DNA from: Octopus vulgaris
Taxonomy: Eukaryota
Reading direction: 5' to 3'
Assembly: GCA_951406725.2 (NCBI GenBank)
Contig: OX597814.1
Location: forward strand, 9,362,001-9,426,000
Length of the DNA stretch: 64,000 bases
The position numbers were made by a program, and so were the translations under genes. Of the stretch, positions 6,445-45,811 are shown piece after piece (the first letter of the stretch is position 1; each line of letters opens with the position of its first letter). The notes under the pieces were generated by a model. It was not told where the DNA came from and made no database searches. It worked only from the letters and a program-made list of their open reading frames with translations.

Positions 6445-6672
6445 GTTGATGTCATCGTTAACAGCACCAATAAAGAACTCCAGCTTCAAAAGGGTTCTTT
6501 CTCCAAATATATTCTCTTTGCTGCTGGTTCAGAGATACAAGATGAATGTAACCAGAAATATCCTCAAGGTATTTCTACATCTGAAATAGCCATCACTAAA
6601 GGATATAACCTCAAATGTAAGAATGTATTTCATCTGGCATTACCTCCCTGGGATGAAAATTCCTCTGATTCA
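6445..6672 (+). CDS. Module 1 exon B, macrodomain N-terminal half
   Basis: ttttgtag acceptor, gtaagt donor; 228 nt, phase 0-0; VDVIVNSTNKELQLQKGSFSKYILFAAGSEIQDECNQKYPQG...AITKGYNLKCKNVFHL, matching the macro-PARP DVIVNS and 'IT.G..L.CK.V.H' motifs. Confidence 0.93.
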
Positions 6673-7281
6673 GTAAGTATCAATCATATGATATTGATTT
6701 ATTGAAAGAGTTAATGTTTGAAGAGAACCTTATGCATGTTGTGTGAGAATCATAAAGCAAATGTCAGCATCCTGTTTAATATTTGTTCTTCCAAGTTATC
6801 ATTGGAAGGAAGCAGAAGATATCGATGAACAGGACACTTTTATATATAAATAGAAGGAAAAAGCCTCATGGCCTAACAACAGTTATGTGACTGATAAATA
6901 AGACTATATTAAAACATATTTCTCTGTTTTACTGTCTGTATTGGTGAGTTTTTCTCTGTCATGGCACGAGCACTAGAGAGGTTGTCATGTCCTCAACAAC
7001 ACTAAAGACTCCTCTTGGGTCTGCATTCTCTCTCTTCATTCACCAACCATTTTACACGGTGGATTGGGTCTGTTTTATTGTAGCAGCAACATGAGTGAGG
7101 TTGCCTTGTCCCTTGCAGGACTAAAGAGTGATAGGAATGACAGTTGTGTTTAGAAGTGGTAGGAGTGAGAGGAGTTGTGAGAGGAGGATATATTTATTAC
7201 AACTTAATGGTTTCTTCCTGTAATAAGAAAATAATTTAATAAAATGTTCATTATCAATTACTAAACAATTATTTTTTTTAG

Positions 7282-7506
7282 ATTCTGGCAAACTTGACTC
7301 AAATAATAACCACTTGTCTGGAAGCTGCTGAGAGAATGGGAACAAAAAGCCTTGCATTTCCTATATTAGGAGCTGGAACATTGAATTATCCCATTGAAAA
7401 CCTACCCAGAACTATGTATGAAGCCGTGAAAAACTACTCAAATCAAAATTCAAGCTGCATCAAAGATGTTTACTTTGTTTTTCCAAAACACACAGAGATA
7501 GTAAAG
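7282..7506 (+). CDS. Module 1 exon C, macrodomain C-terminal half
   Basis: tttttttag acceptor, gttggt donor; 225 nt, phase 0-0; CLEAAERMGTKSLAFPILGAGTLNYP matches the macrodomain S(I/L)AFPA(I/L)GTG motif. Confidence 0.93.
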
Positions 7507-7585
7507 GTTGGTTTGTTTATTTTCCATTTGTTGTTTTAAGTTGATATTTTTGGAATTTACAAAAAAAAAAATTCTACATTAAATA

Positions 7586-8005
7586 GGCGCAGGAGTGGCT
7601 GTGTGGTAAGTAGCTTGCTAACCAACCACATGGTTCCGGGATCAATCCCACTGCGTGGCATCTTGGGCAAGTGTCTTCTGCTATAGCCCCGGGCCAACCA
7701 ATGCCTTGTGAGTGGATTTGGTAGACGGAAACTGAAAGAAGCCTGTCGTATATATGTATATATATATATGCGTGTGTGTGTTTGTGTGTCTGTGTTTGTC
7801 CCTCTAGCATTGCTTGACAACTGATGCTGGTGTGTTTACGTCCCCGTCACTTAGCGGTTCGGCAAAAAGAGACCGATAGAATAAGTACTGGGCTTACAAA
7901 AAAAGAATAAGACCCGGGATTGAGTTACTCGACTAAAGGCGGTGCTCCAGCATGGCCGCAGTCAAATGACTGAAACAAGTAAATGAGTAAAGAGTAAAAA
8001 GAGTA
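7586..8005 (+). mobile_element. tRNA-derived SINE with internal (TA)/(TG) tract
   Basis: A-box-like tggctgtgtgg and B-box-like ggatcaatccc; tail ggcggtgctccagcatggccgcag...gaaacaagtaaa(gagtaaa)n; partial copy at about 20528-20725; absent from modules 2 and 3. Confidence 0.85.
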
Positions 8006-8029
8006 AATGAATAATAATGAAATTATTGT

Positions 8030-8895
8030 ATACAGTGCTCAGGTGCACCACAACTTGTCAAAAGTGCGTATAAAGCATCTGCAGTAATGTACAAATGTCT
8101 GGGAAGTGAACAGTGTATGAGTCAGATACATGCTCGCGTGTGTATGGAGGGGAGAAAGATCAGGTGTAGTGTTGGCAAATCTGAGGAAGCATGGAAGTTT
8201 TGAAGGATGCAGTGCTCCAACAACTAACAACTGATGCCGGCAGTTTGTTCCATGCTTCAGCAACTCTCAGCGTGAAAAAATGTTTCCGAAAGTCATGGAA
8301 GGAGCTGTGCTGTTTTCTGACTTTGTAAACATGTCCACGGGTGTTAGACAGGTGGAGTTTGAAAAGGTGCTCAGAGTTATTGTTTGTAAGATGGTTAATA
8401 ATTTTATGAGTGTCTACCAAGTCAGCTGCCAGACGTCGGAGTTTCAATGTATCCATGCCCAGGGAAGTAAGGCATTCAGAATATGGCAAATGCCTCATGG
8501 AGGGTATTCTCTTGGTTGCACGTCGCTGAACGGTTTCCAGACGATTAATATCCTGGGAAAGATAGGGGTTCCAGACCAGTGATGCAAATTCCAGTTGAGG
8601 CCACACCATAGCTATATAAAGCTGCAAATAGATAGCCGGAGAGTGGCTCACAAAGGACTTGGTGAGTGATGCCAAGACACCCTCAGCCTTCTTGGCAATT
8701 TTAGCAATGTGTTTTGTCCAACACAAATCACTGTCGACAATAATGCCCAGGTCACGTTCACAAGAAGACTTTTTGAGATTAGTGTTGTGGAGGGAGTAAG
8801 TAGACGCTGAGTTTTTCCTCCCAAAATGCATGGTGGTACATTTGTCCACAGCCAGCTTGAGTTGCCAGTCCATGATCCTCTGCTGTGTTTTATCC
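8030..8895 (-). mobile_element. CR1-type LINE, 5'-truncated 3' fragment
   Basis: ORF 8160..8873 with ERDLGIIVD, LEFASLVWNPY, LETVQRRATK, TRGH and FFTLRVAEAWNKLP motifs. Confidence 0.92.
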
Positions 8896-9608
8896 AGGAA
8901 ATAGAAACAAAAATATGGAATCCTTCTGTAAATTTATATATTGGTGTCTTAGAATTCTTCAGTTGGAATGTTGGAATCTTTGATGTGTCTCATGGCCCTG
9001 TCTACCATACTTTTAGGTTAGCTTGGTTTTCTTCAACTCTTCCATTCCATGATTTAATTCTTAGTAACTTGATATGGATTCAGTATAGCTACCTCCACCA
9101 CCACCACTACCTACCCACAACATCCTTCAACAATTCCATTTTGGTTACTGACCAACCAAAAATGTGTTAATAGCACCACCAGAACACTGATGGTTTTCTT
9201 TCATTTCTGTTCTTCAAAGTGGAACGCTTTGGAAACTCTTTCCACAATTCTTTACAGTTCTTCTCAAAGTTGGATGAATCAATTAAGGGGCTTCTATGCT
9301 GTGCCTTAACTTGCTAGTAATAACAGCCAAGTGTCTCTTAAATCACAGTCTGCTGTCGTCAAAACTGGCAGAGTTGTTAAGGTGTCAGATAGGAAACCTT
9401 CTAATCTTTGTTTCAGCCCTTGGCATTCTGAGTCCAAATCCTGCTGGTGCCATACTAACCTTTTATTCCTTCACAATTCATAAAAATGTCCGTCTTCTCT
9501 GTTGGATTCATAGAAGTAGAAGAATGACAGAAGATCTTCTGTGGTGTTCGTTTCAGTACTTGGCATTCTGATTTCAAATCCTGCCATGGCAATGCTGGAT
9601 TGTGAATG
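8896..9608 (+). repeat. Segmental duplicate of about 21317-22157 (C-D intron sequence)
   Basis: Direct alignment by eye; ORFs 9296..9571 and 21773..22123 translate nearly identically. Confidence 0.92.
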
Positions 9609-9614
9609 TGCGTG

Positions 9615-9620
<6 letters not shown>

Positions 9621-9708
<88 letters not shown>

Positions 9709-9726
9709 CTCTCTCTCTCTCTCTCT
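9621..9726. repeat. (CA)n followed by (CT)n microsatellite
   Basis: Direct reading. Confidence 0.98.
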
Positions 9727-10537
9727 GATCAAGAATCCCATTCACACCTATACATTCATTTACCTACACATATGCATTCGCATAGGCATATCCTTGAGCA
9801 CCCCAACATATACACACACACATACATATGTGGAATGGGAAGAATGGGTGGAGTGGGGAAACTAAATTATAGATATTTTTATACACTGTCCCATCTTGAA
9901 AATGCATATTTGGCACAGTGATTATACTCTGGAATTTTCTCATCATGCTTGTTTACCAGGTTCTCATTATTCATCAGTATACTCAATGCTTCCTCAAGTA
10001 ACGAACCACACAGGTGTGCATTTTTTATTATTGACCATTCCATTTTGTATTTAATTTATGATTCTTTCATTCCCCATATGAGGTCTGCCAGTGAAGTTGC
10101 GTGTTGTCTGTTTATTTTTCGGAATGACAACGTGTGGCTGTGATAACTGACTTTGAATTGGTTTTCCATGGCACCTATGTACACATATTTATGTTGGGAG
10201 GTGGAGATTGTTTATTTGTATACTATGTTTTTTTGGACACATTGGTTCATGAGCAGACAAGTGGATTTTCTACAGCTTGTACAGTTATTTGTACTATTAA
10301 TTTTTATATTTATCTCATGACTTTTTGATTCTGTTTTCATGATGTTCCATTTGATTGTTAGTATCTGGAACATTGTGAAATCGGTAATCCATTTTGTTGG
10401 ATCTTTTTTGATGATTCATTTTAATATTATTGCCACTGTCTTTTATATTATCTGAGTTTTTGAAGTCTTTCTGTTGCTTATTTTTGTTATTGACCTTAAA
10501 TCCTGTGATGTTTTCATTTGCTCATTCTCTGCCAGTA

Positions 10538-10944
10538 CTTACTTGTACTTGCGGTGACATTCACCCTGGACGGGTTGAGTTGGCTTCTTCCACCACCCTC
10601 GAGGCATTGTATTCGCCATTGAGGATTCATGGAAGAAGTTTCGTGGGGATATGTGGATTTGACAAGTGGTCCCCAACAATTCTGCATGTAGAGACATCCT
10701 GTTTGCCGCAGATAGTACGCAGATGCAGGGGCAGAATGACCGAGGAGCCACCAGTTGCCGAAACAGACACTCCAAGGATTTTCACCAGAGCCCCGTCTGC
10801 CGGGTTGTGGCCCTAATACCACTCTGTGTCAGACCAATCCACCTTGGGTGGCCCTACCAAGAACCGAAGTTCCCAATGGCATAGCTCTGACACTACCCGT
10901 TGCCAGTGTCCCCACCACGGTGAGGAGGGTATGGACTTTGGGGA
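10538..10944 (-). mobile_element. Short non-autonomous RTE-derived retroposon, independent longer copy
   Basis: Inverted homologue of 991-1339; perfect 9-bp TSD ctgccagta at 10529-10537 and 10945-10953. Confidence 0.8.
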
Positions 10945-11059
10945 CTGCCAGTAGACATTGTTTGTATGTTTATTTCCCTGTTCTTGTATTTATGTATGTA
11001 GTACTCAATCCTATAAGATGTTGCATATGGTATTTACACTGTGTGCTTGTTGAATAAAC

Positions 11060-11380
11060 CAGAACTGTGGAGTCAGAGCTGAAGTTTGAGTCATGGAGTT
11101 GGAGTCAGAGTGTCAGAGTTGTGGAGTTGGAGATGAAGTCGAAACAATTAAGGGGTAGCTGGAGTTGGAGTCGGTAAAACTATACCGACTCTGACTCACA
11201 ATGCCTTCATTCTTTAATATAAACCAGTTATAACATATAGGCCTACTCAAAGTACAAGTGTATGCATATGCTTTATGAGATAGGTTGACCACAATTACTT
11301 AATTACATACAGAAGAGTCAGAGTCAGAGGTGCCAACAGTAGAGGACTCAGAGTCAGAGTGGTGAAACTGAATTTAAACT
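11060..11380 (+). mobile_element. GGAGTC-rich MITE-like remnant
   Basis: Repeated ggagtc/agagtc/ggagtt hexamers and hairpin gagtcggta...taccgactc. Confidence 0.5.
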
Positions 11381-11809
11381 GAAGTCAATTTTTAGGCAGA
11401 TGTGGTGCATATTGTTGGTGGACAACAATCATCTGCTAAAGGCACCAGAACTGCCAGATCACGTATTTTCGCCCTGCTCAAGTTCATCAGTGACAGACAC
11501 CCTGTAGCAACATAACAGCCAAATCTCCGTGTCAACGATATATAGACACTGATGTCACAAATAGCCTGAAGTCTTATTAAAGATAATTAATAGCAACAGA
11601 AGCAGTGTTAATACCAAAAGGCATTCTTTATGTTCATATGCTGTAATGAAGAAATTAGGGAAATTCCTGCCCACTGTAGAACTGTTTGTGAAGTTCTTTC
11701 TTTTTGAATCTTTTCTCTTTTCGTTTGTCATCTCTCTTAAGAATGACCATGATCCTAATTGTTGGACCTCTTCCACCTCCTCCTTCTTGCTTACAATATG
11801 AAAATAATT

Positions 11810-12190
11810 ACCTTGTACTCTGCTTTTGTTGCTCAAATATTCTTGGCTACACAAGATGCACCAAAGAACCTCAACTTCAACATTCTTGATAGACATTTCA
11901 ACAGCAAACATAAGACTCAGCAGTTTTAATCAGAATGGTGAGTGGAGAGAAGAAACAATACAACTTCAGCTACATGAAGACACCATTGCCACATGTTTAA
12001 CTTCACTAACACTACATCAGTGGCCATGTAAATTGTGAGAGGTTTTTCTGCCGCATCCACTGTATTACCATATTGAGACAGGTTTCATATCTTCTGGAAG
12101 ACATGGATGGTTATACATGGAATAGCTTTGATCTGAATAACAAAATAATTTTCCTCGTTTGTTTGTTATTGATGAGAAATAAATCGTTAA
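11810..12190 (+). repeat. More diverged duplicate of about 40174-40551 (upstream of exon D)
   Basis: Shared block aacctcaacttcaacattcttgatagacatttcaacag...cagctacatgaagacaccattgccacatg. Confidence 0.9.
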
Positions 12191-12324
12191 GTTCACAGTC
12201 TGATCAATAAATATCTGGACTGTTGCCAGAGTAATGAAGCTAAAGCATGCAGAGTTATGCCACTTGGTACAGCTTGACCTCCAACTCTGTTGTGAATGCT
12301 CACTAAGTTTTAACATTCTAGCTC

Positions 12325-14630
12325 AGGCATGTCAGAGTGAGGGGCTCCCAAGGGCCATATGGGCCACATTTGTGTTGTCACAAGGGCTGCACTCGCTTCA
12401 ATTCCAATTGAAGTCATTTCATAAAAATTATTGCAGAATATTTTTCTTACTTAAACTTAGAAACATACTTTGGGTAAGTAATGAAGTACTTTAACCAAAA
12501 GAAAAAAAATGAAGCTTAAATAGGCAACATAGATGTGAATGCAACAGCAACAAATATATTGTACAAAATTTACAATAGTTCAAAATGAACATTTAGTTAC
12601 AACTTTTCAAACATTTTCAGTATTTTGTCGTGAGGCTTGACACCTTTTTGCTGAAAATTTTTGGTATGTCTGGCTGAAATGTCTGTGCAGTTCTGAGTTT
12701 GATCAGAGATAACAAGTGATAAAAGGCAGCGAGCTGGCAGAACCGTTAGCACACCGGGCGAAATGCGTAGCCGTATTTTGTCTGCCGTTACGCTCTGAGT
12801 TCAAATTCCGCCGAGGTCGACTTCGCCTTTCATCCTTTCGGGGTCGATAAATTAAGTACCAGTTACGCACTGGGGTCGATGTAATCGACTTAATCCGTTT
12901 GTCTGTCCTTGTTTGTCCTCTCTATGTTTAGCCCCTTGTGGGTAATAAAGAAACAGATAACAAGTGTTGATTGTCAGTCTTGTTTTCTGAGAAGTTTTTG
13001 TTGATTTCATGAAGGAAAATAACTGTTTACACACACAGGTAGAATGAAACATTGCCATAATCCTTGTGGTAAACTTTCTGAAGTCTTTAAAGTTTTCAGG
13101 AAGGTATGAAAAGAAACCAGTTATCCCCACTTCAAAATACTTTGATCTGAGTGAAGAATCTGACTGCATTTTGAATAGCTTCCTCTGCAGACTTTCTTTT
13201 GCCTTAGCAACATCAAAGGTGAATGGTGCTGAGAATAATGCAAACAGATGTTCAAAAGATGAGAGATCTTTCCTGAAATTCCAGGTGACTGTCATACTTA
13301 GCAAAGCTAAGTACAGACTCAGTATTAGCGCAGTTTTTCAGCTCTTTGCACTTAGGAAAATGGATTAAATTTTCATTTGACAACTGTGACTTCCATAAGC
13401 TTCATTTTCTAATGAAGCACTTGATGTCACCATACAACTGAGTGATGGGTTTGTTTTTACCTTGTAATTACAAATCGAGATTAGTTAATTGTGCAGTAAT
13501 GTCCACAGCAAAAGCCAGATCCTGGAATCACCTCTCATCTTTTGTTTCATCTGTTTTTGACCTTTCATCTCCAAAAACATAATTATTTCTTATTTCAACG
13601 AATGAAATATTTTCTGCACTTTGTGGCATGAAAACCAGCAGACTTCTGTGAAGAATGGAACATCAGTGAACTGATTATCCATATCTTTCAACAACTGACT
13701 GAATTGACAGTGGTTGAAAGCGTGGCCTCTGATATAGTTCACTGTCATTGTGACCAAACTAAGCGCAAGATCCAATTTTAAAATCTTTGAGCACAAATTT
13801 TGCTGATGAATAATGCAATGAAAATGTGCAACTAATGGATCCAGATGCAAATTTTTTATTTTTGTTTGTAACTTAGCAGAAACACATTATGTCTGCCAAC
13901 TATATTCACTGCACCATGAATAGATAAGTGTGCAAGTTTACTCAAATCAAAACCATAATCATACAGAACCCGTTCGACTTTCTCAAAGATGTTTTGGCTT
14001 GTTGTAGTATCATGCATGGAGATCAGTTCAATCAGTTCTTCATAAATATTAAATTCACTGTCACAGGCCCCGATGAAGACTGCGAGCTGTGCTATTCCAG
14101 TGATGTCAATGGTCTCATCAATAGCAATACAAAATGTTCAAATCTTGATGATGCAGCTTTCAACTATTGCTTCAGATCACCTGACATTTCATCAATCCAT
14201 TGAGCAACAGTGTTCCTGGTTAATGAGATATCTTTGAATAAGTATGCTTTCTCTGCACACACAATTTCAGACGTTTTTTACAAAGCATTGCTTTATGAAA
14301 TCTCCTTCACTGTAAGATTTCCCATTCTTGGCGATCATTTGGTGGAGTTTATAGCTTGCTGTAACGGAAGCGACATTCCTTTTCTGATTTTTCTGTGAAA
14401 CAGGTCTGTTGCTGTGTTGAGTTAGCCTTCAGTTCCTTGAGTCTTGAAACATGCATTGAACCACCTCCATATTTATCATAAGATCGATGATATGTTTCAT
14501 AATGTCTTTTCAAGTTGTACTCTTTCAGTGTATCTTTCCACTCACTGTTGTGCAAAAATACTATAATTCCCATTTTTCTTGAAACACTCGCCCTCCTCCA
14601 TTCAGTTTAAAGACAAAATAGATTTGTAAA
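12325..14630 (-). mobile_element. hAT transposase remnant (SPIN/GTF2IRD2-like)
   Basis: LKEYNLKRHYETYH, FHCIIHQQNLC, FFTEVCWFSCHK and MFHSTCVCKQLFSFMK fragments, in order on the - strand. Confidence 0.9.
12725..12953 (+). mobile_element. tRNA-derived SINE inserted in the hAT remnant
   Basis: ggcagcgagctggcaga...gagttcaaattcc B-box; central gcctttcatcctttcggggtcgataaattaagtaccag; flanking repeat agataacaagtg on both sides. Confidence 0.88.
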
Positions 14631-14899
14631 TCTACTCACCAGAAATGCAGCACACTGGGACAAGAATCGCAGGACACAGGCAATGCAGGGCTTGAAAGCA
14701 CTCTATGAACTCTGTCTACCAGATGAGAATTTAATGAATGATGAAGAGAAGAAAGGAAAATCAACTCATATGAACGTTGACAGGTACATTCCACAATGTT
14801 CAAACACCTGTAACATTTGATGTACAAAACATCTGGAGTCACAGATTAGCCAATTGCTAGCTCGCTGATGGGAAATTTCGCAACTCTGGGCCTCTGAAT

Positions 14900-15756
14900 A
14901 ATTGTATAACTTTCTTCTTGCTTGTAATCAGATCCAAATCCAAAGATGCCAATGCATTCAGGGGAAAAGGGTGGCTGTCTGTGTGGGTCACAGGTGTTTT
15001 GCAATGGGCTGCATGTTTGACATACCCGTTCTAGCTCACGTCTACTGTTTACAGCAGTGCTTGGAAAGAAGGTGTGTAGTGTGTGGTTGTTGCATTGACC
15101 ATGAAGAAGAAGAGAATCTGCATCAAATTTTGTCAAAAGCTTCGTGATACCTGCTCAGAGACCTATGCAAAGTTTTCAAAAAGATTTCATCGTTCTCAAC
15201 ACAGTCAAGGAGATTTTGTGCAACTGAAATCCAAATGTCTTTTTGATCAACTGAAAGCAGTTTTGGCACAAACTTGGCAGACATGCGTCTCACACCCAAA
15301 TCTTCAGTGATAATCGACTGAACTGAACTGTAACTAATCTGCACATCCTCTGATAACTCAAGGATGGTGATTCAATGATTTCCCCTCACAGCTGCATGCA
15401 CATCTACAGCGTTTTACTCATTTATGTTGTCTGTGGGTCTCCCCGAACATTTGTCACTCTCGACATTTTACGGCAATTTTGGAAATGTCTGAACCACTTG
15501 TACACTTGTGTGCAGCTCATACACTCCTCTCCATACACTTTCTGCAATTTTGTGTGTGCCATTGAGCAGGTATCACCATGACAACTTTTTCTGTCATGGT
15601 CGATATTTCAATTTCATGTTACACATGTTATTTCCAAGCTCTACTGTAATCAACGGAAGTAAGCTAAGGTCAATCTGTGCCAAGCAGCTTCACTCTGCTT
15701 ACTTTAGCTTCCTTACTAAGGCAACAGTTCAAATACTTATTGATCAGACCTTGTAT
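14900..15756 (-). mobile_element. Rearranged mariner remnant
   Basis: ISYSSVQSIITEDLGVRRMSAKFVPKLL on the - strand; KRICIKFCQKL on the + strand; terminus tacaaggtctgatcaataagta at about 15735-15756. Confidence 0.8.
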
Positions 15757-15857
15757 TTCAAATATTTTGTTTCGTTTTGTTGAATTAAATCTCTTCCTTT
15801 TGCAAGAATGAAAAAATAAAACATAAAAGTGATTCTGATTGTTTTCTGTTTTAACAG

Positions 15858-15939
15858 AAATTTGATGAATATCTCCAAAATAAAGACGAAAATGAAGGAG
15901 TAATAAATAAACAGGAAAATGAAGGATTTCATTCAAAAG
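15858..15939 (+). CDS. Module 1 exon D (final helix and linker)
   Basis: ttttaacag acceptor, gtaaac donor; 82 nt, phase 0 to 1, exactly what is needed to join exon C1 to A2; KFDEYLQNKDENEGVINKQENEGFHSK; homologues at 40661 and 54023. Confidence 0.8.
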
Positions 15940-16494
15940 GTAAACAATTTGTTGTGAGGTGAACAATTTATGCAAGGTCTGAGCATGCCTCACACTCCAC
16001 TGAGTTGTGGCTTTGTCTGAAGTGGTTTTACGAGTTATTTATCTGAGTTTTGGCCATGGCATCATTACTGAAGGCCTGCTGAACTTTTCTGGATGCTTTG
16101 AGCTTGAGTGTCACCAAGCTTTTGGTAAAACTTGATGCAATATCTTTACTCAATACATTTGGTCATCTTGCATGAACACAAAGGTCTGTCCAGTGCACAC
16201 TACAAGTTTATACTCTAGGTTTAATGTCCAGGAGCAGTTGCAGTTGCACAGGAAAGGTGAAGTCACCGCTCACCCAAAGGGTTTTTCCCACATGGGAAGG
16301 AAAAATAAAGTCAGATACTTTTTGAGTGCAACTCATAAATGCATTGACATGAGTTTAACTGTTTGAGTGTTTGTCCCATCCTCTCCTCCCAAACCTCACT
16401 TTGCAGGTAATTACTTCTTGTTCAGGGATTTGGGGCAAGGGACATATTCTTTATAGGGTCCCTTCTCTAACTGCTTCCTTCTCATTTGTTCAGT

Positions 16495-17823: not shown

Positions 17824-17942
17824 ACACTGCATCATCGAAAGCATCCCTTCCTGGTTCACAACAGGAACCCTCTTCTGTGGCATCTGGAGAAAATGCTCGC
17901 ATCAACATACAACTATTGATTGATTCAATTTCTAATGTATCT
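17824..17942 (+). CDS. Module 2 exon A
   Basis: tttttcag acceptor, gtgagt donor; 119 nt, phase 1 to 0; (D)TASSKASLPGSQQEPSSVASGENARINIQLLIDSISNVS; 18-nt in-frame deletion relative to A1/A3. Confidence 0.85.
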
Positions 17943-18214: not shown

Positions 18215-18442
18215 GTTGATGTCATCGTTAACAGCACCAATAAAAACCTTGAGCTTGACAGTGGTGCTGTCTCCAAATCTATTCTTTTTGCTGCTGGTCC
18301 ACAGATACAAGATGAATGTAACCAGAAATATCCTCAAGGTATTTCTACATCTACAATAGCCATCACTAAAGGATATAACCTCAAATGTGAGAATGTATTT
18401 CATCTGGCATTACCTCCCTGGGATGAATATTCCTCTGATTTA
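18215..18442 (+). CDS. Module 2 exon B, macrodomain N-terminal half
   Basis: 228 nt, AG/GT, open; VDVIVNSTNKNLELDSGAVSKSILFAAGPQIQDEC... Confidence 0.93.
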
Positions 18443-18477
18443 GTAAGTATCAATCATATGATATTGATTTATTGGAA

Positions 18478-18688: not shown

Positions 18689-18793
18689 GATATTGATTTA
18701 TTGAAACAGTTAATAATTGAGAAGAACCTTATGCATGTTCATTATTTATATTATTACATTTGACGGATATTTGTCCTCATCTTATTTGTTGTT

Positions 18794-19640: not shown

Positions 19641-19868
19641 ATTCTGGCAAACTTGACTCAAATGATTACCATATGCTTACACACTGCGGAGAAAATGGGA
19701 GCAAAATGCTTGGCATTTCCTATAATAGGAGCTGGAAAATTGAAGTACCCCATAGAAAACCTACCTGGAATTATGTATGAAGCAGTCAAAAACTACTCAG
19801 ATCTAAATTCAAGCCAGATCAAAGTTGTAAACTTTGTGGTTTATCCTCAAGACACAGAAATAGTAAAG
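19641..19868 (+). CDS. Module 2 exon C, macrodomain C-terminal half
   Basis: 228 nt, AG/GT, open; ILANLTQMITICLHTAEKMGAKCLAFPIIGAGKLKYP...VVNFVVYPQDTEIVK. Confidence 0.93.
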
Positions 19869-23154: not shown

Positions 23155-26100
23155 ATAGTAGGTATCTGTCGGTCTTGAGAAGCCATGGATTTGCACCTGA
23201 AGAAATTGTGTCAGGTGCTGCTGGTGATGCAGTGTCTGCTGTAGCTGCAGAGGCCTGCATGGGAGTGGCTGTCACACATACAGTGACTGCATTTGTAGGA
23301 GCTCTCTGTCGGCACTACTGGTTTTGCCTTCCACTGAGTGCACTTCTTTTTGGTGGCAGGTTCCTGTTTATCTTCCTCCTCTTTTGCAGTATTTGTCTCA
23401 AGTGTAGGCAATCATTTGTGACCTCCTCCCATCACAGGACATCCAGATCAAGTGACTTCACATTCCTCTTACAGATATCCTTGAAACAAAGATGAGGTCA
23501 TCCTCATGCTCTTGTGCCAGTGGCCAATTTCCCATACAGGAAGTCTTTTGGGATCCTTCCATCCGACATGCAATGTAATGACTGAACCAACACAGATACA
23601 GATGATGCTGCTGGAGTACCTGGCACACTCTGGATTTTGCTTTCAGCCTCAGCAGACTAAACAGTTTACTGTCTGATCTGGTGTGAAAGTAAACACCATC
23701 AGTTGATGCCTTAAATGTATGTTTCAGCATGACTGCAAAGAAGATGCCAAACAGGGTGGAAGCCAGCACACAGCCCTGCTTCATGCCTCTAAGTATGTTG
23801 AATACCTCTGAAGAAAAACCATCAAATTGAATGACATCTTTCATATCTACACGAAACGATTGGACAATCCTGAGAAGTCTTGGAGGACAGCCAATCTTGG
23901 AAAGGATTTTGAGCAGGCCATCTCTACTAACTAGGTCAAGAGCCATTTTGAGATCACTGAAGATAATAAAGAGTGGTTGCCTTTGCTCTCATCACTTCTC
24001 CTGCAGCTAACAAAGAGAGAATATCATGATGATGGTTGGGCATTCTGATCTGAGACCGCACTGAAATTTAGAGTATACCCTCTCAGTGATTTTCTGTGTA
24101 GGACTATGGAGGCAAATGCCTTATTCACAATGCTTAACAGCAGAAAGCCTCAGTAACTGTTGCAGTTGCTTTTGTCTCCTTTGTCTTGTGGGACTGATCC
24201 CACCCTCCTCCCAGTACTGACACAATAGCTTCAGCAAGTGGCTGAGTAGAACTCTCCTCCTTGCACATCTGATGATTTCTGGTGGGATGCCATCCAAACT
24301 CAGTACTTTTCCAGTGAGCAAGCTGTTAATGGCTCTCCTCAGTTTTCCCTCATTTGGCATTATGTCCAGCTCCTCCATACCAGCTAGGTATTCTCCAGTA
24401 TCTAGTGCTCTGTCTGAGATGTTTTTCTTGGTGTAGAGTTCAGAATAAGGTTCTCCCCAGCTGCTCTCTTTTGTCCTTGATAACTTCTGCTGTTCTGGAT
24501 TCTATCTTGCTCTGGGTTGGGCCAGGGGCTTTCTTCATACCCTCATACATTCATGAATGCTGTCTATGTCCAACGACAGCTGGGTATCTACACATAGTTG
24601 TAACCAGTAGTCATTTGCGCACCATCTCACTCTTCCTTGCCGATCTCAATACTTGCAGTGTTGCCCTGGTGGGTTGGTGTTTGTGCTTTAAGCATGGCAG
24701 CACACTTCACCTCCATGCGGCTATTGATCTCTTCCACACTTGTCTCAACAATCTTGCGTCATCTTCCTCCTCCTCCCAAAGACCCTCAGTGCAATACAAT
24801 GGCTTATGTCCCTGAGACAGTCCCAGCTCTGCTGAACAATGCCTTCTGGTGGGTTTGCATGGAGAGCATTGTCCAAGGATTTGAGGAATTTATTTGTCTT
24901 AATTTAGCTGCTGGTTTGCGGTAGCATCGTTGCACTTCTTGCGTGGGGACCAGATGCAGTGCATCATTATTGGTTGGAGTTTGAGATTGCAGTAAGCCAG
25001 AGTGTGGTCTGTGTCACAGCACTCTGAAAAGACTGAGTCTGGAGCACATTCCTCAGGTGGTTGCATCTCATGATCTTCAAATCTAGCTGGTGCCAATGCC
25101 CTAAGCAATGGTGATGCCAGGAGACCCACTGTTCAGCTACTGAAAGTAGGTGTTGGTGACACAATTCTCGAAGCATGCAGAGCTCAAGCAGCTGTTGCCC
25201 CTTTTCTTTCATGTTAGCAACCCCATACCGACCCAGACACCCTGGCCAGGAGTCGTGATCTGCTCCCACTCTGGCATTGAAGTCACTAAGTAGCTCCAGC
25301 TGTTCTCCATTTGGGATCACCTGTATTTTCCTGGAGAGTTGATCATAAAACTTATCCTTGACATCTTGTGTGGAATAGAGGATTGGCACATATGTATTGA
25401 TCAGGTTGACAGGCCTATCAGAAGTATGCAATCGAAGTATGAACCATCACTGTTGACTTCTACCAACTTTATCAGAGAGGTTTTTATAGCAAAGCCAACA
25501 CCAGGCTCTCTCACTTCATCTATGCCTTTCTCTTGCCAGAAAAAGCTATACTCTCTTTCATGAAGGGTCCCCAAATCTGGGAGCCTCATTTCCTGGAGTA
25601 TTGCAATGTCCACTCAGAGTCACAGCAGTTCATTGTTGATCACTGCTGTCTTGCGTGTGTCACTGATTTTTAGAAGATCCTCTGACACACCAGTTGTCAT
25701 GGTCCTTATGTTGCAACATCTGAGCCTGAATGCTGTTTTTTTTTACGTTTACTTGCTTGTTTGTTCGTTTTTTTTCGTGCAATGTTTACAGCCCACAATT
25801 TGAGATGTTAGTTTCCCTAATCCCCACATGCCTAGTGGAGCAGGTGGGCTGTGATGGGACAGCACCTAATTGGCTGGGGTACTGTCCAGTGAGGCACAAT
25901 GGCCTCTCCCTCTGTTGAAGGCAGCCCTTTGTTCTTATGCCAATTATGTGCAGGCTTAAAACAGTAGACTGCTGCTTTCCATGTTTTACTGATGCTGTTA
26001 GACAGCACTGGAGTGTCCTCCCTAGGGTAGAAGCCAGGGCAGTTGTTCATGGGAGATTGACAGTTGCCCATGTGACCCGTCTCCCCTGTCCACTGCAACC

Positions 26101-35370: not shown

Positions 35371-35834
35371 ACCAAAATTGAAATAGAAGAAACATTTAAG
35401 ACATGGAAATGCATATTAGTTTTTGAATAGAGTCTACTTTCATAGAAGCACATTGCCATCTTGTGATGTCTTTAAAGAGGGACTTTAGTTCATGAAACTG
35501 GTGAAGAATATGGAAAAAATGATGGAGAGAGAAATAATCATTCTACTGTTTTTCTGAAACGATTGAATGAAGGAAACCAAGGTAGACGGTGCCTGTGAGT
35601 TGTCTAGGTTGATTGTGTATTGGGGAGGCTTATTTCATTTTCTGCCTACCAGACCTACTCACAGAGCTTTGTTTGGCCTAAGGCTGTAGTTAAAGAGACT
35701 TTCCGAAGGTACCATACATTGAGACAACTTAAATTAAGGCAATTAAAAGTAATAGCAACAGAAGCAGTATTAATACCAAAAGGCAATCTTTATATCCAAC
35801 TAAATGTGAATGTTGTGTTAGAATACCAAATACT

Positions 35835-37170: not shown

Positions 37171-37249
37171 TTGCTGTACCATTTTGTCATCTGCATTCTT
37201 CAGTGCTTCTTTATTTGTCCTACTCTGTTGGACATGCACACTGACACTG

Positions 37250-39900
37250 GCATGGAAGCATACTGGCTTCATTTCTTTCTACTCTACACATGTCTTCGGC
37301 TATCACAGCCCATGTTTCAATGCCATGTAGTGTAATTGTTCACACACAAGCATTATGCAATCTGCCTTTCACTCTGAGGGAGATGCCCTTTGTTGTCAGT
37401 AGAGGTAGAAACTCTCTGAACTTTGCCCAGCGTAATCTTATTCTCACAGCTATGCTCTTGGAGTATCCATCTTCGCTACTAACTTGGTCACCTAGGTAAC
37501 AGAAGCTATCTACTACCTCTGGTATACCCCTAGTTGATGGAGCCTAAATTCTGCACACTTTCAGCGTTTATTGTACCTGTACATCTTCCACACACAAAAC
37601 CTATTTTTCCCTGTTAACCTTCCTCTGGCATTGCTGCATCTTTTATATTTCCAAAGCTTATACCAGGTCCATCTTATGGAATTTCTGCCCATGCCTTTTT
37701 TAAAGATCAAATAAGGCGATCTACCTGAAGGGATTTGTGATTTGTTTGCCTTCCTACTTACTAGGACTTTGGTTTTTGCTAGATCAACTCTAAAGCTCTT
37801 CAATTCTAAACCTTGCTTCCATACCTGAACCTTCTTTAGTTCTTGTAGTGATTCTACTATGAGAGCATAGAAGAGCTCCCAGGGGAAGCCTGTCTAGAAT
37901 TCCTCCGTTAATACCTGGAGGACTATGATGAACAAGCGGGGTTGAGCACCCTGAATTATTCACTGTACTCGTTACCAACCCTCACCTTACTGATAACATC
38001 CCTGTACAGGGCTAGTACAACTCTTACCAACCATTCATCTATCCCTAGTTTCCGCATTGACCACCAGATAACGGATCAGAGAATTCTGTCAAAAGTTTTC
38101 TCCATGTCAACAAAAAGCCAGGTACAGAGGTTTATCTTTGGCTATATATTTCTCCTGCAACTGTCTTACCAGAAATATAGCATCAGTGGTGCTTCTGCCT
38201 GGCACAAAACCAAACTGCACTTCATCTAAACTAATTCCCTCCCTAAAGTAGTTGGGCTACGGCCCTTTCCATGACTCATCCCCTGATCCAACTATTTGAT
38301 ACCTCTGTAATTATTTCTATCTAAATCATCACCTTTACCCTTGTAGCTGTTGACTATGGTGCTGCTACACCAGTCATTGAGTATGATTCCTTCATGAACT
38401 ACCTGATTTACAATACGTGTAACTCAACTATAACCCACACCACCAGATATTTTAAGCATCTCAGCAGTGATTCCTGATGGGGTGGGGGCTTTCCCTGTCA
38501 TCAAACCCTTAATTGCTTTATCCATCAAGGTACTGTCAATTTGGATAGACTCCCCTCCTCCCATTCATTCTCCACATTCAGCAGTCTTTCATAATAGCAT
38601 TTCCATGCCTCTTTCTTTGCAGAATCATTAAACTCAAGTGCACCATCATCGATGCACATACATTTCTCTCCTATAACATCACAATTTTATCTCACTCACT
38701 GTCTTACAATCTGAAACACATCAGTTCTTTGGTCCTCACATCACTGAACAGAGGCAAACTTCTTTTCTGCTTCTCCCTTGGCTAGATATACCTGTCTCCT
38801 AGCTTCCTAGCTTCCCTTCAGGCAATTTAAACAGTTTCCTGCTATCCCCACTCCTCCAGGACTTCCAGGCCTGTTTCTTTGCTTTAATGGCCCTGTCTAC
38901 TGCATCGTTCCACCACTATGTTACCCTAAGTCTGGAAGGGACTTTGCACCAGCTGCAGATTTGGTCTGTGGCACTCAGCAAGCTGTCTCACAAGAATTCT
39001 TAGTTGCCCTGTATGTCACAAGTCTGTAGCTCCTCCTCCTCCCTCTCATCAGATTTCTCAGTTTGGATGTCCCTAAATCTCTGACCATATGAGGGTCCTT
39101 AAGCTTCCAAATTCTTCTTATCCAGATTGGTCTGCTTCTTGGCATCCTTCTGGCCTGGAGTCTAAAGACATTATTGATTAGTCTATGCTGGGGGGTACAT
39201 TCTTCACCAGGGAAAGTCTTTGCATTTAAGAGCAACCATACATCCCACTGTCTGGTCAGGATGTAATCAATCTGGTTAGCAGAAACACCTGACTGATAGG
39301 TTATCAGGTAGCTGATTGGCTTCCTGAAGTTGGTGTTGCAAATCAGTTGGTTATTTGCATCACAGAACTTCAGTAGCCTTTTTCCATTTTCATTTCAGGA
39401 ACCCATTCTATGGTTCCCATGTACACCATGGAAATTATTGGGCAGCCATATGGCATGCCCATTTGAATCCCCCAGCCATGAAGGCGAGATCTTTGTCACT
39501 CATCTTTGAAGTAGCCTGCAGAAGAATATCATAAAAGTGGTCCATCTGAACATTTGGTAGGCCCACTTGTGGGATGTAGGCAAATATAATTGTAGCCATA
39601 CAATTCTGTAAGACTAGCCTGAACTTAAGTATTCTATCACATATTCTAACTACCTCTATGACCTTATTCACCCATTTATTATCTAGAAGTATGCCCACCT
39701 CACTTGCCCCATCACTGTTACCTTCCCAGAAGATTTTATACCCTTGAGTCTTGCCTGTGAGGAATCTGACTGAAGCTCCTTTCCACCTTACCCCTTGAAT
39801 GCAACATATCTCAACATGCCTCCTTTCAAGTATCTCTACAATCTAGTTAGACCTACTTTTCAGTGTATCTACATTGTGGGTGCCAACTCTAAAATTCCCA
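37250..39900 (-). mobile_element. Degenerate RTE LINE (APE plus RT)
   Basis: GILLDNKWVNKVIEVVRICDRIL, KTFPGEECTPQHRL and VDLAKTKVL fragments in order. Confidence 0.9.
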
Positions 39901-40660
39901 CAGCTAAAACTTTTGTGTGTATGTTAACTCCTCTTCAAGTTTCTATTAACCCCACATGAATTGGTTTATCCTGTTATAATTCTTAAAATGTTGAATTGTT
40001 TTAATGCCTATTTTGGGATACAGTATATTTAGTAAAACTAATTAAGACACAACTATCTCTGACCACCTACCGTGTACTCTGGTACTTCACGTACTTCTCT
40101 TTACTTACAGTGACTAGGTTATTCCATTGGTCACATGGGAAGGGTATACCATTATTACTAATTCCCAACAACACTTGTACTCTGGTTTTGTTACTGAAAT
40201 GTTTTTGGACATATGAGATGCAAGAAAAATAACCTCAACTTCAACATTCTTGATAGACATTTCAACAGAAAACACAAGACTCAGCAGTTTTAATCAGAAT
40301 GGTGAGTGGAGAGAAGAAACAATACAACTTCAGCTACATGAAGACACCATTGCCACATGTTTAACTTCACTAACATCACATCAGTGGCCATGTAAAGTGT
40401 GGGAGTTTTTTCTGCTGCATTCACTATAATACCATATTGACATAGGTTTCATGTCTCTCAGAAGACAGGCAGGCCATACACAGAATAGCTTTGATCTGAA
40501 TGACAAAGTAATTTTCCCCTCTTGTTTGTTACTGATTAGAAATGAACCATTAAATATTTCAAATATTTTGTCATGCTTTTGTTATATTAAATCTCTTCTA
40601 TTTGCAAAAATGAAAAAATTAAGCATAAAAATAATTCTGATTGTTTTTTTGTTTTAACAG

Positions 40661-40706
40661 AAATTTCGTGAATATCTCTTAAAAACTGAAAAATTTCATT
40701 CAAAAG
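40661..40706 (+). CDS. Module 2 exon D
   Basis: ttttaacag acceptor, gtaaat donor; 46 nt, phase 0 to 1; KFREYLLKTEKFHSK; upstream intron aligns with that of exon D1. Confidence 0.8.
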
Positions 40707-41747
40707 GTAAATAATTTGTTCATTAATATTGAATATTATTATGACCTCTATACCTGTGGGGTGTGCCCTGGCACCTGGCCTTCCACCATTTATTTCTCTC
40801 TTCCTTACTTTACCATCCCATCTAGGCCATGGTCCCTATCCTTTGTGAGGATACCCTGGCACCTCTCTTCCACTCCCACTCTCCCTTTGGTAGAGTAACC
40901 ACGTATCTCCCTCCTTCTGTCCTCTCTCCGTCCCTCTCTCTCACATTGGGTAACCGTGTATCTCCTCTTCAGCAGCATGCCTGTTTCTGCTCTCATTCTT
41001 AACCATACACCCTCTCTCTCTCTCCTTCCCTTGCTCTTCCCTCCAACTAGGTAACCATTCATCTCATTTACACCAGAACATCTGTTCCTACCTTCTTTCA
41101 TGTTATCTCTCACTCCCTCTCCCCCTTTCTTCTCTCACTCTCCCTTTCTTCTCTCTCTCCCCTTCTTCTCTTTCTCTCTCACTTTCTCTCCTTTTCTTCA
41201 ATTCCCCTCTCTCTCTCTCTCTCTCTCTGTAACCATGTATCTCCTCTACAGCAAGACATCTGTTTCTGTCTCTCTCCAACCATTCATCATCTGGCACAAG
41301 CTCCCCTCCTCCAGTGCTGCCTCTCCTTTGTCTTGCAAGGTTACTTGGTTACCCTGCTGGTGCCACTTAAAAAGCACCCAGTCTATGCTGTGAAGTGGTT
41401 GCTATTTGGAAGGGCATCTAGCTGTAAAAATCTTGCCAAAACTGACCTCACCTGTGATTGTGCCATGTAAAAAGCACTGCTAAGTGGTTGGTGTTAGGAA
41501 GGGCATCCAGCTGTAAGAATCCAACCAAGACAATTACAGAAGTCTGGTGCAGGCTTCTGTAAAACCATCCAACTCATGCTAGCATGGAATGAGGATGTTA
41601 AATTATGATGGCAATGGCAGAAAGCAACCAGATGGCCTTACCCTGTGTCCCTGGGTAAGAGGTAGGTGTCTCTCTATGTTGTCTGCAATACTGAATATTC
41701 TCAAACATTCATTATCCATGTGTGTAGAATCATATCATAGGCTTTCT

Positions 41748-42897
41748 GCATCTGTTCAGTTTGGCGTACAAATTTTTTAATTTTTGAAACTTTATATACT
41801 GGTAGAAGTTCTCAGGCAGAACAGTTTACTTTAAACATTTTTGACAAAATTTCATATTTTAGAAGTTATTTCAGGTTAAAGTTGTTGTATTTGGGTAATT
41901 TTAACCAATCAACGATGTGTATTCAGTTGACGAAAGCTACTGCTGTTTGTGATAGTAATTGAAGAGGAACAACTTACGGGTCATCTCTACTAAATGTCAC
42001 CACTCTGTTCTATTCGTATGTCGAGCGAAGACAATGTCACCTTTATCCTTTCTTCCTTCCTAGTCAGCACCATGCATTCCTTACTCTTTCCCTCCCTACT
42101 GGCAGACAGCCACTTCTACACTATCAACTAGCAACCAGTGAGTGAACTTGTCTCTACCACTACAATTACCGTATTTCTGGTGTATAAGTCACTATTTTTT
42201 ACCTGGAAAATTTAGAGTGCCCTTTATGGAAAAGTGCACCTAATATGTGTACTTTTTTATAAGTTTCAGGAGGAAAATAATTTGTGTATGGAGATTGACT
42301 GATTCTGCTGAATTTTTCAAGGAAAGATTGGTTGGTGAACAATGTGAAAGACTACGGCTTCAGTACATTGGTGCCTGGAAGAAAACACAGCATATTTATT
42401 TTGTTTTACCTTCATGTTTTTATAATGTTATTTTTAATCTAATAGAGACTTTCATATTGATGAAAAGTGTTTGTTGATGATTATAGTAAGATAAAATCAT
42501 AACAATAATAATATATCTCATAGTGTCGATCAGTGTTACTCCGATGCAAGAACCTAAAACAAAAAAAAATGTGTATAATATGCAACATGGACAGTAAACA
42601 ATAAATAAAATAGTGCAGAGTGGCAACATTTAGTAGAAATTACCTGGAAGTTGTTCCTCTTCAATTACTATCGCAAACAGCAGTAGCTTTCTTCAACTGA
42701 ATACATGTTTTTGATTGGTTAGAGTTACCCAAATGCAACAACTTTAACATGAAATAACTTCTAAAATACGAAATTTTGTCAAAAATGTTTAAAGTAAACC
42801 ATATTCTGCATGAGAAATTTCACCAGTATACAAAATTTCAAACTGTTTAGTTAAAAAAAAATTAATAAAAAATCTGTGAGCCAGATTGAACAGATCT
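41748..42897. mobile_element. MITE-like DNA element with TIRs of about 230 bp
   Basis: 41748-41975 is the reverse complement of 42648-42897 (e.g. gtaattgaagaggaacaactt / aagttgttcctcttcaattac). Confidence 0.88.
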
Positions 42898-43009
42898 GGC
42901 TTTCTTATTATCTATCCATGCTATTGTTAAATTTTTCTTTCTAGATTTTACTTTATTTAGAACTGAATTATCTGTATATAATAGATCATGTGCTTCTCTA
43001 GCATTCTTC

Positions 43010-44160
43010 CTGCAACAATTCACTGCTACCACCATTCTTCCAGTCCTTCCAAGCCTGTTTCTTTTCCCTAATGGCCCTTTTAACTACATTGTTCCACCAC
43101 TAAATTACCTTGGGTCGAGAGGGGACTTTGCACCATCCACAGATCTGTTTCGTGGTCCTCAACATGTTGTCCTGTTGGAACCTCCAGTTGTCTTCAACAT
43201 CATGTGATGCTATGTCCCCCTCTATTTTGTCAAAAGCTTTGACTAATATGTCTCTAAATCTCTATCTATTCACAAGATCCTTAAGCTTCCAGACCCTTCT
43301 TGTCCATGCTGGTCATCTCCTGGGCATCCATTTAGCCCTGATCCTGAAGTCACTAACTACTAATCTATGTTGTGAGGTACATTCTTGACATGGGAACATT
43401 TTGGCATTTATAGGTAGCCATCTTTCCCATTTCCTAGTGAGGGTGTAATCATTTTGACTAGTGTGTCCACCAGATCAGTAGGTGAATAGATGACTGGCAG
43501 GTTTCCTGAAGTTATCATTACAAACCAGAGGATCATTTGCATCGTAGAACTCCAGCAGCCTGGTTCCCTCCTCATTACAGGAACCAAAACCGTAGCATCA
43601 GTGTATGCCATGGAAGCCCCTTGCATGTTGTCCAACTTGTCCATTGAAGTTGCCAGCCACAAAGAGAAGGTCCCTGTTGTTCATCCACAAGGTAATCTGC
43701 AAGAGGAAGGGTGTCATAAAATTAGTCTTTCTGTTCATCTGGTAGCCCTGGCTGAGGAGCATAAGCTGAGATAATGGTTGCTAATCCATGTTGCAGCACT
43801 AATCTAATCCTTAGTATTCTATCACAGACTCTGACTACCTCGATTACCTTATCAACCCATTTCTCTGCAAGAAGTATACCCACGCCCCCGACCCCATGTG
43901 TGTTCCCTACCCAGAAAATCTTACACCTATGTTCTTTGCCTGTGAGGAACCTAGCAGAACCTCCTCTCCACCTTACTTCTTGGATGCAGCACAAATCTAC
44001 ATGTCTCTGCTCGAGCATTTCAACAATCTCACCAGACCTATCTGTCAGTGTGCCAACCCTATGGATGTGGGAGGTGTGGGCCTGAGAAACCCTGGGATGG
44101 GGGACAGCAGTATCATGTACCTGAAAAGAAAGCTCGCATTTGGTTGAACTCATAAACATA
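43010..44160 (-). mobile_element. RTE LINE APE endonuclease region
   Basis: VGTLTDRSGEIVEMLEQRHVDLCCIQEVRWRG...GVGILLAEKWVDKV...ISAYAPQPG. Confidence 0.92.
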
Positions 44161-45165
44161 CATTAGCCTTCACCCTTCATACACTACACCATCATTTTAT
44201 GTGCTACATAATCACTACATTACATAGGAGATAAACCTAAGTAGGGACGGGAGAGCATTAAGCCTTTGGAAATGTTCAGGGGAAAGACATCCGATAGAGG
44301 TCTGAGAATAGAGACTTCTGTGAAACGGCAAACACTCTGGCTGCTGGTGTGGAATAATAATAATAATAATAATAATAATGAGATAGAATTGGACATTTGC
44401 ATTCTTAACTAGAGCTATAAGCAACAGTTTTCAGTCAGCCAAACTATGACAAAATTAAATGAATGAATGGCTGAATGGCAATAATAAATGAGTGTAAGAG
44501 AAAGGGAGAGCTGGATTGAGCATAGGGATCTTAAGTTTTTTTCTCGAAACATACAGCTTGGAAGACTATGCTGACATACATAATGAAATAATAAAGTAAT
44601 CATAATTTGCACTGTAAAAACAGGTTTTAGATGTGTGCTAGGTTGGAAATCAAAGTTGCTCGGCAAGAGAGATCAATACTACGAGAGATCAGTACTAGTC
44701 TTACAAAGAGTAAGTCCTGTAGCTGATTTGTTCAACTAGATGTGGTGTTCTAGCATGGCTTCAGTGAAATGACTGAAACAAATAAAAGAATATAGATACA
44801 TGTATAAAAAGCACCATTCGAGTGTGGTCGATGCTACTACCAACTGACTGGCTCACGTGCCAGTGACACATAAAAAGTACTATTCTAGCATGGTCAGTGC
44901 CAGTGCTGCCTGATTGACCCACATGCCAGTGGCACACAAAATGCGCCCACAACACTCATGGAGTGGTTGGTGTTAGGAAGGGCATCCAGCTGTAAAAACC
45001 TTGCCAGATCAGATTGGAACCTGGTACAGCCTCCTGGCTTGCCAGTCCTCAGTGAAACCATCCAACCCATGCCCGCATGGAAAGCAGGCATTAAACAATT
45101 ATCATCATGATGATATGTATACATAACATACAACATACACCTTGATATTTGTTTATTTTTTTCAG

Positions 45166-45302
45166 ACACTGCATCACCAAACCCATCCCTTCCTGGTCCA
45201 CAACAGAAAGCAGCCCCTATGACACCCAGAACTAATGTGGCATCCGGAGAAAATGCTGGCATTGAAATAAACCTAATGACTGATTCAATTTCTAATGCAT
45301 CT
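45166..45302 (+). CDS. Module 3 exon A
   Basis: tttttcag acceptor, gtgagt donor; 137 nt, phase 1 to 0; (D)TASPNPSLPGPQQKAAPMTPRTNVASGENAGIEINLMTDSISNAS. Confidence 0.85.
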
Positions 45303-45583
45303 GTGAGTAAATAGATTCACTTAACATATTTGTATTTAATTGTTATTTCATTTGCAAATGAGGAATCATTACAGTTAATTAAAACATTTTCTCAATCAAA
45401 CTCAAACATTTTATTTCCTTCACATCTGATATCTTGAATATATCTTTTGCGAACTTTAACAACCTCAAACTTACTACAGCCATTCTGTAGAGCCTTTCTT
45501 AACAACAATATCAACTGCAACAATGTATCTCTCTTCTCTCCGCGGAATGTTCCTTAGTTGTTTACCATTAATTACTTTTGTAG

Positions 45584-45811
45584 GTTGATGTCATCATTAA
45601 CAGCACCAATAAAATCCTCCAGCTTAATGATGGTTCTATCTCCAAATTTATTCTCAATGCTGCTGGTCCACAGATACAAGCTGAATGTAACCAGAAATAT
45701 CCTCAAGGTATTTCTACATCAGAAATTGCCATCACTAAAGGATATAACCTCAACTGTGAGAATGTATTTCATCTGGCATTACCTCCCTGGGATGAAAATT
45801 CCTCTGATTTA
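45584..45811 (+). CDS. Module 3 exon B, macrodomain N-terminal half
   Basis: 228 nt, AG/GT, open; VDVIINSTNKILQLNDGSISKFILNAAGPQIQAEC... Confidence 0.93.

Follow-up and report, generated by a model that had tools for sequence, protein, structure and literature searches.

A 64,000-nucleotide stretch of the Octopus vulgaris genome (C1:9362001-9426000, hereafter the window) carries three near-identical macrodomain repeats of a PARP14-like gene, which raises the question whether such copies are being driven apart by selection and, if so, which property of the domain is being changed. Each repeat unit is encoded by three exons, A (linker and first strands), B and C, and a short linker exon separates the units. 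An earlier note on this DNA had proposed diversifying selection on both ADP-ribose-binding loops, of which loop 1 is encoded by exon B and loop 2 by exon C. Site-specific positive selection, with a ratio of replacement to silent rates (omega) above 1, is found at exon-B codons 11, 13, 16 and 68. The first three lie in loop 1, where the proposal stands up to recombination-robust tests; the strongest site, codon 68, lies outside both loops and is invisible among the three copies of the window, all of which have Pro there.

The hand count on which the proposal was built is reproduced by script: B1 and B2 differ at 13 replacement and 2 silent codons, as do B1 and B3 (B2 versus B3: 13 and 4). The multi-nucleotide codon changes it described are present as well, with four codons in each B1 pair differing at two or three bases, and so are the quoted loop strings, except that B3 reads INSTNK in place of VNSTNK. 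The adjacent introns had been called almost identical, which overstates a modest contrast: the 250 nucleotides upstream of exon B are indeed closer than the exon, with 13-15 mismatches (5-6%) compared to 19-21 of 228 (8-9%), or identities of 94-95% versus 91-92%, and the downstream comparison of the window copies covers 35 nucleotides only. At a transition/transversion ratio of 1, the ratio of replacement to silent differences per site (pN/pS) among the three copies is 1.72 across exon B (bootstrap P 0.094) and 2.5 for codons 11-22 (P 0.043), a region picked post hoc. The three-copy signal alone is therefore not clearly past chance, while that of 47 copies from the whole genome clearly is.

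Exons B and C each have at least 51 matches in the O. vulgaris genome, none with internal stops, clustered at 5.3-9.4, 206.6-207.1 and 215.8-216.4 Mb of C1 and on contig C29. Forty-seven of 51 copies were analysed; those dropped were L007 (frameshift near the end of exon C), L040 (truncated), L002 (odd indels, no exon A) and L024 (the same as L023), and one insertion column and the hybrid codon at a loop-2 deletion were masked in the alignment. Tree-based site models yielded twice the log-likelihood difference (2dL) of 142 (M1a/M2a), 132 (M7/M8) and 131 (M8a/M8) in exon B, with 27% of sites at omega of about 5, and 18.3 and 13.5 in exon C. These results are not taken at face value, because null simulations produced false 2dL of 5-71 in 10 out of 10 recombining sets (0-1.6 in six non-recombining sets); the observed value from the same pipeline, 136, exceeds all 16 nulls. 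Double-nucleotide mutation was rejected as a cause, the tree-based 2dL still being 118.9 with a double-hit rate.

A tree-free test was used in addition, a Dirichlet-multinomial approximation of the genomegaMap type in our own implementation. For exon B it gave 2dL 45.6 (M2a versus M1a), with omega 10.6 on 7.4% of codons, whereas the maximum in 32 null simulations under four recombination settings was 11.0. The sites found were codons 11, 13, 16 and 68, with posteriors of 1.0, 0.98, 0.99 and 1.0, respectively, and a site omega of 10-22 at codon 68. Omega above 1 at exon-B codons thus persists in a recombination-robust codon model that uses no tree. Exon C shows no signal in the same test (2dL 0.4); with pN/pS 0.47 at C29-36, and C33 flagged by the tree-based models only, the claim of selection on loop 2 is not supported.

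The exon-B result withstood gamma rate variation (2dL 27.9), removal of the window copies and their twins (42.2 with 42 copies) and division into two disjoint cluster sets of 26 and 19 copies (29.4 and 19.3). With threefold hot segments at codons 7-16 and 67-76, the largest null among 23 sets was 10.8 versus 29.1 observed. Codon 68 shows all four bases at positions 1 and 2, while all 25 Pro codons are CCC, a pattern unlike that of a mutation hot spot. As a control, the exons of the hydrolase-type macrodomain (MD1) were examined, the middle exon of which has 19 matching places in the genome: 19 copies showed no selection signal (2dL 0.5 and 3.4), whereas eight random 19-copy draws of exon B gave 17-47. 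No more than two residues occur at either of the positions in the hydrolase-type copies that correspond to B11 and B68. A one-codon gap puts two of the 19 second exons out of alignment, an error whose sole effect would be extra noise.

The exons concerned lie in the window as follows, B1, B2 and B3 being bounded by AG/GT ends.

6031..6167, + strand: exon A1, linker and first strands of macrodomain repeat 1; exact match to residues 252-296 of the O. vulgaris protein P0003.
6168..6444, + strand: A-B intron of repeat 1; family-wide more uniform than silent exon sites.
6445..6672, + strand: exon B1, 76 codons, from the NAAN-like motif through loop 1 up to the beta-alpha loop with codon 68; PF01661 E 1e-10.
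6475..6492, + strand: span of the selected loop-1 codons B11 (6475-6477), B13 (6481-6483) and B16 (6490-6492).
6646..6648, + strand: selected codon B68, with 10 residues among 47 copies.
7282..7506, + strand: exon C1, loop 2 (diphosphate loop) and C-terminal half; one codon less than C2 and C3.
15858..15939 (3' end approximate), + strand: linker exon between repeats 1 and 2; 27/27 match to P0003 448-474.
17824..17942, + strand: exon A2; 40/40 match to P0003; A-B intron length 272.
18215..18442, + strand: exon B2, 76 codons, profile match.
19641..19868, + strand: exon C2.
40661..40706 (3' end approximate), + strand: linker exon between repeats 2 and 3; 15/16 match to P0003 667-682.
45166..45302, + strand: exon A3; 45/45 match to P0003; A-B intron length 281.
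45584..45811, + strand: exon B3, 76 codons; 100% match to P0003.
46411..46638, + strand: exon C3; 100% match to residues 350-425 of the O. sinensis protein P0016.
54023..54070 (3' end approximate), + strand: next coding exon past repeat 3; 16/16 match to the end of P0016.

Shortly before exon A1 (5695-5976), a 491-bp local duplication contains a truncated exon-B start of eight codons followed by a GT microsatellite. The introns hold long open frames resembling fragments of LINE-type retroelements (8163-8933, 23461-23988, 59346-61419; - strand), many repeats resembling short interspersed elements and a long AT/GT microsatellite at about 57500-58100.

Recombination among the copies is evident. 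The pairwise homoplasy index (PHI) is significant inside exon B (P 0.0035), exon C (0.039) and the A-B intron (0.026), although not for the joined intron and exons (P 0.73). Pairwise distances of intron, B and C are nearly uncorrelated (Spearman 0.11, 0.00 and -0.01 for 1035 pairs), and 91 pairs with introns at most 2% apart differ by a median of 11% in each exon. The core of the A-B intron has a diversity of 0.040, compared to 0.058 and 0.196 at four-fold sites of exons B (26 sites) and C (24 sites). Introns more uniform than silent exon sites are expected from gene conversion with retained exon diversity, and the data suggest that conversion homogenises the introns while exon variants persist; constraint on the introns may be an alternative cause of their uniformity. 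The earlier note had named as a possible refutation that intron identity is accounted for in full by conversion sparing the exon: conversion is present, yet it does not explain the selection signal away. At its four-fold sites, exon C (e.g. 7282-7506) is roughly five times as diverse as the A-B intron despite an omega below 1, which suggests old exon C lineages sheltered from conversion.

At C29:31.78-31.82 Mb (L002, L009, L014 and L059), window repeats 1 and 2 have a similarly spaced twin that is 98-99% identical to them, and the third repeat there is only 95% like window repeat 3; the twin could be either a recent duplication or a second haplotype that was misplaced. In the twin of repeat 2, exon B differs at 7 of 228 bases and the introns at 7 of 2614, which resembles an imported tract, and six amino-acid differences fall in codons 29-59. 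Two pairs of repeats about 969 kb apart (C1:7558374/8527238 and C1:7588899/8557748), with 0 and 1 exon differences, may likewise represent a very young segmental duplication or an assembly duplicate.

The sequence and a fold model predict that the repeats are non-catalytic ADP-ribose readers of the macrodomain 2 (MD2) type. Exon B scores 42-44 bits against PF01661 (cut-off 22), and the closest solved structure by both sequence and fold is human PARP14 macrodomain 2 (PDB 3q71, 3vfq and 4d86), the best single-domain match with E 3e-22 and Z 25.7-26.8. The top fold comparison (Z 26.8, root-mean-square deviation 1.4 over 168 residues) used the predicted model of an O. bimaculoides domain, P0039 (predicted local distance difference test score 84). 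Hydrolase macrodomains such as MacroD and MD1 are described as having a Gly flanking loop 1 and a hydrophobic-aromatic pair in loop 2 (PMC10221186). Both features are missing here, as B18 is Ser, Ala or Val in 47/47 copies and C34 is Leu or Met in all 32 copies with that codon. Human MD2 is described as a reader without hydrolase activity, Gly1044 being the residue mutated to block it (PMC10499325); the equivalent B17 is Gly in every one of the 47 copies, and C32, equivalent to Gly1135 in loop 2, is kept in 32, including all three of the window. The octopus repeats thus resemble human MD2 in the extra loop-1 residue, the conserved Gly1044 and the lack of hydrolase motifs, but differ from this single-copy domain in being present at least 51 times, several per gene, at about 29% identity. 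The position of the adenine-binding Asp (exon A, about 6150 in the window) is Ser in 46/46 copies; human MD2 is also without Asp. Some of the hydrolase-type copies (L100-L110) carry catalytic-loop changes (His lost, Gly to Glu or Asp), with a deletion in L108, and loss of hydrolase activity, a repeated event in mammals, may have followed in a few of them.

The selected codons were placed through the SARS coronavirus domain (Mac1, numbered after PMC7729036), using the alignment with PARP14 macrodomain 2 in Figure S5 of PMC4038475. B9, B11 and B13 align to Mac1 Asn40, Tyr42 and Lys44, B15-B18 to the Gly46-48 loop, with B16 as the extra residue, and C30-C34 to the diphosphate loop. In Schuller et al. 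(bioRxiv 10.1101/2020.11.24.393405), the outer site lies between Asn40 and Asn99 and has Tyr42 and Lys102 as walls, and the path of the peptide is modelled in two ways, along the Tyr42-Lys102 cleft or along the Gly46-48 loop; no contact list for this surface appears in the accessible text of PMC6008491 or PMC11490716. B68 follows the conserved H-x-x-x-P of the next strand and occupies a loop position in the predicted model (residue 121). If its equation with Asn99 is right, B11 and B68, although 57 codons apart, would face one cleft. By this alignment the selected sites likely fall on the rim next to the distal ribose, the presumed location of the modified protein. The variety is large, with 10 residues at B68 and eight each at B11 and B16, whereas N6, L12, G17, S20, H63, W69, the Pro at C27 and the Gly at C30 are invariant in 47/47 copies. 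The suggestion of changing ligand specificity therefore has to be narrowed, as the pocket-forming residues do not vary and the selected ones align to the rim. An invariant pocket with selected residues along its rim is less suggestive of a new small ligand than of selectivity for target proteins or evasion of an antagonist. Our preference, held with modest confidence, is that selection at 11, 13, 16 and 68 diversifies which ADP-ribosylated proteins each copy would bind, with the core of the pocket fixed.

Several observations weigh against this target-selectivity reading. The whole-exon pN/pS is 1.36 for B (bootstrap P 0.076) and 0.93 for A+B+C, and 75% of exon-B codons fit omega of about 1, or weak constraint. 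In a joint A+B+C fit (2dL 29.2; 20.0 with gamma) only B11, B68 and C59 exceed 0.8, so that B13 and B16 depend on the correct neutral rate; C59 includes CAG/CGG/TGG states, and its signal may be CpG-driven. The tree-free likelihood is approximate and calibrated solely by the simulations named above. Site placement is by alignment rather than by atomic distances, and B68 is presumed to be Mac1 Asn99 from the position of a motif. Among 37 distinct exon-B segments of O. sinensis there is no new residue at 11, 13, 16 or 68 and the B1 protein is identical, which argues against rapid ongoing change in orthologues. Finally, 15/47 copies have the loop-2 Gly changed to Glu or Lys together with a one-codon deletion; as the equivalent change in Mac1, G334V, is reported to nearly abolish activity (PMC7729036), these copies may bind ADP-ribose poorly or not at all.

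The loop-2-altered copies (L003, L046-L050 and others) make up 9 of the 12 copies in the array at C1:206.63-207.04 Mb, and several have Tyr at B68; they form a possible non-binding or re-purposed subfamily. The O. sinensis segments share the five most variable positions (11, 16, 33, 68 and 22), and 8 of the 37 are identical to an O. vulgaris copy. The shared residue sets and identical segments indicate a repertoire older than the species split and common to both species.

Among the alternatives to target selectivity, the strongest is a defensive one, in which substitutions on the rim would let the readers evade a pathogen protein that binds or blocks them, with no effect on target choice. Daugherty 2014 (PMC4038475) favoured escape from antagonists for the mammalian macro-PARPs, and the many unrelated substitutions at surface residues are as compatible with escape as with recognition. 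However, the mammalian sites are dispersed and distinct from the ADP-ribose site, while those of octopus cluster by the pocket exit; many variants coexist as paralogues and are shared with O. sinensis, which suits a repertoire; and the hydrolase-type domains are without signal. We regard escape as unlikely, although not negligibly so. Retuning of the pocket itself through both loops, for different small ligands or forms of ADP-ribose, as the earlier note had it, appears improbable. B10 is Lys or Glu (32/12), one past the Asn34-equivalent by motif, where K35E helped to raise the affinity of Af1521, B22 (F/S/Y/L) and C33 in loop 2 vary, and the 15 copies lacking the loop-2 glycine and one codon point the same way, but none of B10, B22 and C33 reaches significance without a tree, exon C has no selected site in that test and the core residues are invariant. 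The least probable reading is that of no positive selection at all, with redundancy relaxing surface constraint and recombination plus uneven local ancestry mimicking selection: it draws on the PHI result in exon B, the false positives of the recombining nulls, a silent diversity also raised in loop 1 (pS 0.14 versus 0.07) and two-state sites (30, 41, 57, 59 and 65) that are flagged by tree models and vanish without a tree, yet it is already largely refuted for B11 and B68, since the tree-based and both tree-free values exceed all their nulls and B68 and B11 remain significant even at twice the exon B neutral rate (site 2dL 25.9 and 10.8).

The repeats belong to a sizeable gene family. A PF00644 profile search missed the catalytic exons on C1 (nine matches elsewhere), which were recovered with a family-specific query: the last catalytic exon has 17 matching places on C1, 15 of them without a stop in the match. 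Altogether the genome has at least 51 nearly identical macrodomain units, most of them on C1, distributed over about 17 PARP14-like loci. A fourth repeat upstream of the window, at C1:9334287, is the first repeat of P0003, and same-strand catalytic exons, absent from that protein model, lie at C1:9495099-9503222, about 70 kb beyond the window. From their position, the upstream repeat, the window repeats and the downstream catalytic exons would form one transcript; the relatives P0001, P0011 and P0012 combine PF01661 macrodomains and a PF00644 catalytic domain in one protein. Mono-ADP-ribosyltransferases carry the triad H-Y-(I/L) in place of the polymerase Glu. The downstream exons encode HGT, GVYF and Ile at the third position, and hence the mono-transferase triad without the polymerase Glu. 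Splicing was seen in RNA-like sequencing runs, counted as RNA by an automated guess. In X16 and X19, from different studies, exon coverage is far above that of introns and 6167 is joined to 6445 across GT..AG; the joint also occurs in X14 and is absent from the DNA run X3. At 90% likeness, what is demonstrated is splicing within the family rather than of every individual copy.

The protein models contain 0-1 MD1-type and 1-5 near-identical MD2-type repeats, MD3-type domains not having been searched separately, and do not show the MD1-MD2-MD3 layout of PARP14 proper; the ancestral three-macrodomain layout described in PMC10221186 is thus replaced in these models. The named ones among 44 protein matches come from O. 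vulgaris, O. sinensis, O. bimaculoides and Argonauta, and most named are PARP14- or PARP15-like, the rest hypothetical. Argonauta P0022 has two near-identical units, so tandem repeats occur beyond the genus Octopus; no squid or cuttlefish name is among the matches listed, which is weak evidence.

Positive selection and duplication of macro-PARPs were already known (PMC4038475, PMC13224862). The mammalian precedent invoked in the earlier note differs from the octopus case. PARP9, PARP14 and PARP15 show gene birth and loss and positive selection in their macrodomains, but there, as described in PMC4038475, selection acts among orthologues, at sites that differ per domain and on surfaces distinct from the ADP-ribose site, although overlap with the octopus sites at single residues is possible. 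In octopus it acts among paralogous repeats that recombine, and the positions, close to where the pocket opens, are shared between them. Clustered PARP14-like duplication is likewise described for lancelet and sponges (PMC13224862), the lancelet having four PARP14 paralogues compared to about 17 loci and the amplification of one reader domain in octopus. Gene conversion with retained diversity of coding segments is also described for the immune multigene families of RPP8 NLRs (nucleotide-binding leucine-rich repeat proteins) and CEACAM; those are receptors for pathogen molecules, whereas the varied module in octopus reads a post-translational mark. The searches made, which covered literature outside subscription journals, found no account of the octopus PARP14-like expansion; the one relevant mention is of a PARP14-like protein with higher abundance in the skin mucus of octopus kept in aquaria (PMC11431876).

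The proposed course of events would begin with tandem and segmental duplication producing the reader copies, after which gene conversion would even out the introns and shuffle exon variants into new combinations. New side chains would be favoured on the rim next to the distal ribose, at the point where the modified chain would exit the pocket, and one to several readers per PARP would bring its mono-ADP-ribosyltransferase domain to different marked targets. It is possible, though we hold this only tentatively, that octopus possesses a germline repertoire of more than 50 ADP-ribosylation readers comparable to an innate receptor family, with PARPs that read different host or pathogen proteins and with the third of copies lacking the loop-2 glycine serving as decoys or ADP-ribose-independent binders. 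The analogy with mammalian PARP14 is the only reason to suppose that the family may have an immune role.

Two questions about reader macrodomains are open in general: do they discriminate between ADP-ribosylated proteins, and which course does the modified chain take? For MD2 and MD3 of PARP14, the physiological targets 'need to be established' (PMC13224862). About 50 near-identical natural domains that differ mainly at the rim make both target choice and the path of the chain directly testable, and the octopus reader panel could yield target-selective probes for ADP-ribosylation. For the animal itself, which has no adaptive immunity, the family adds a candidate immune gene-family expansion.

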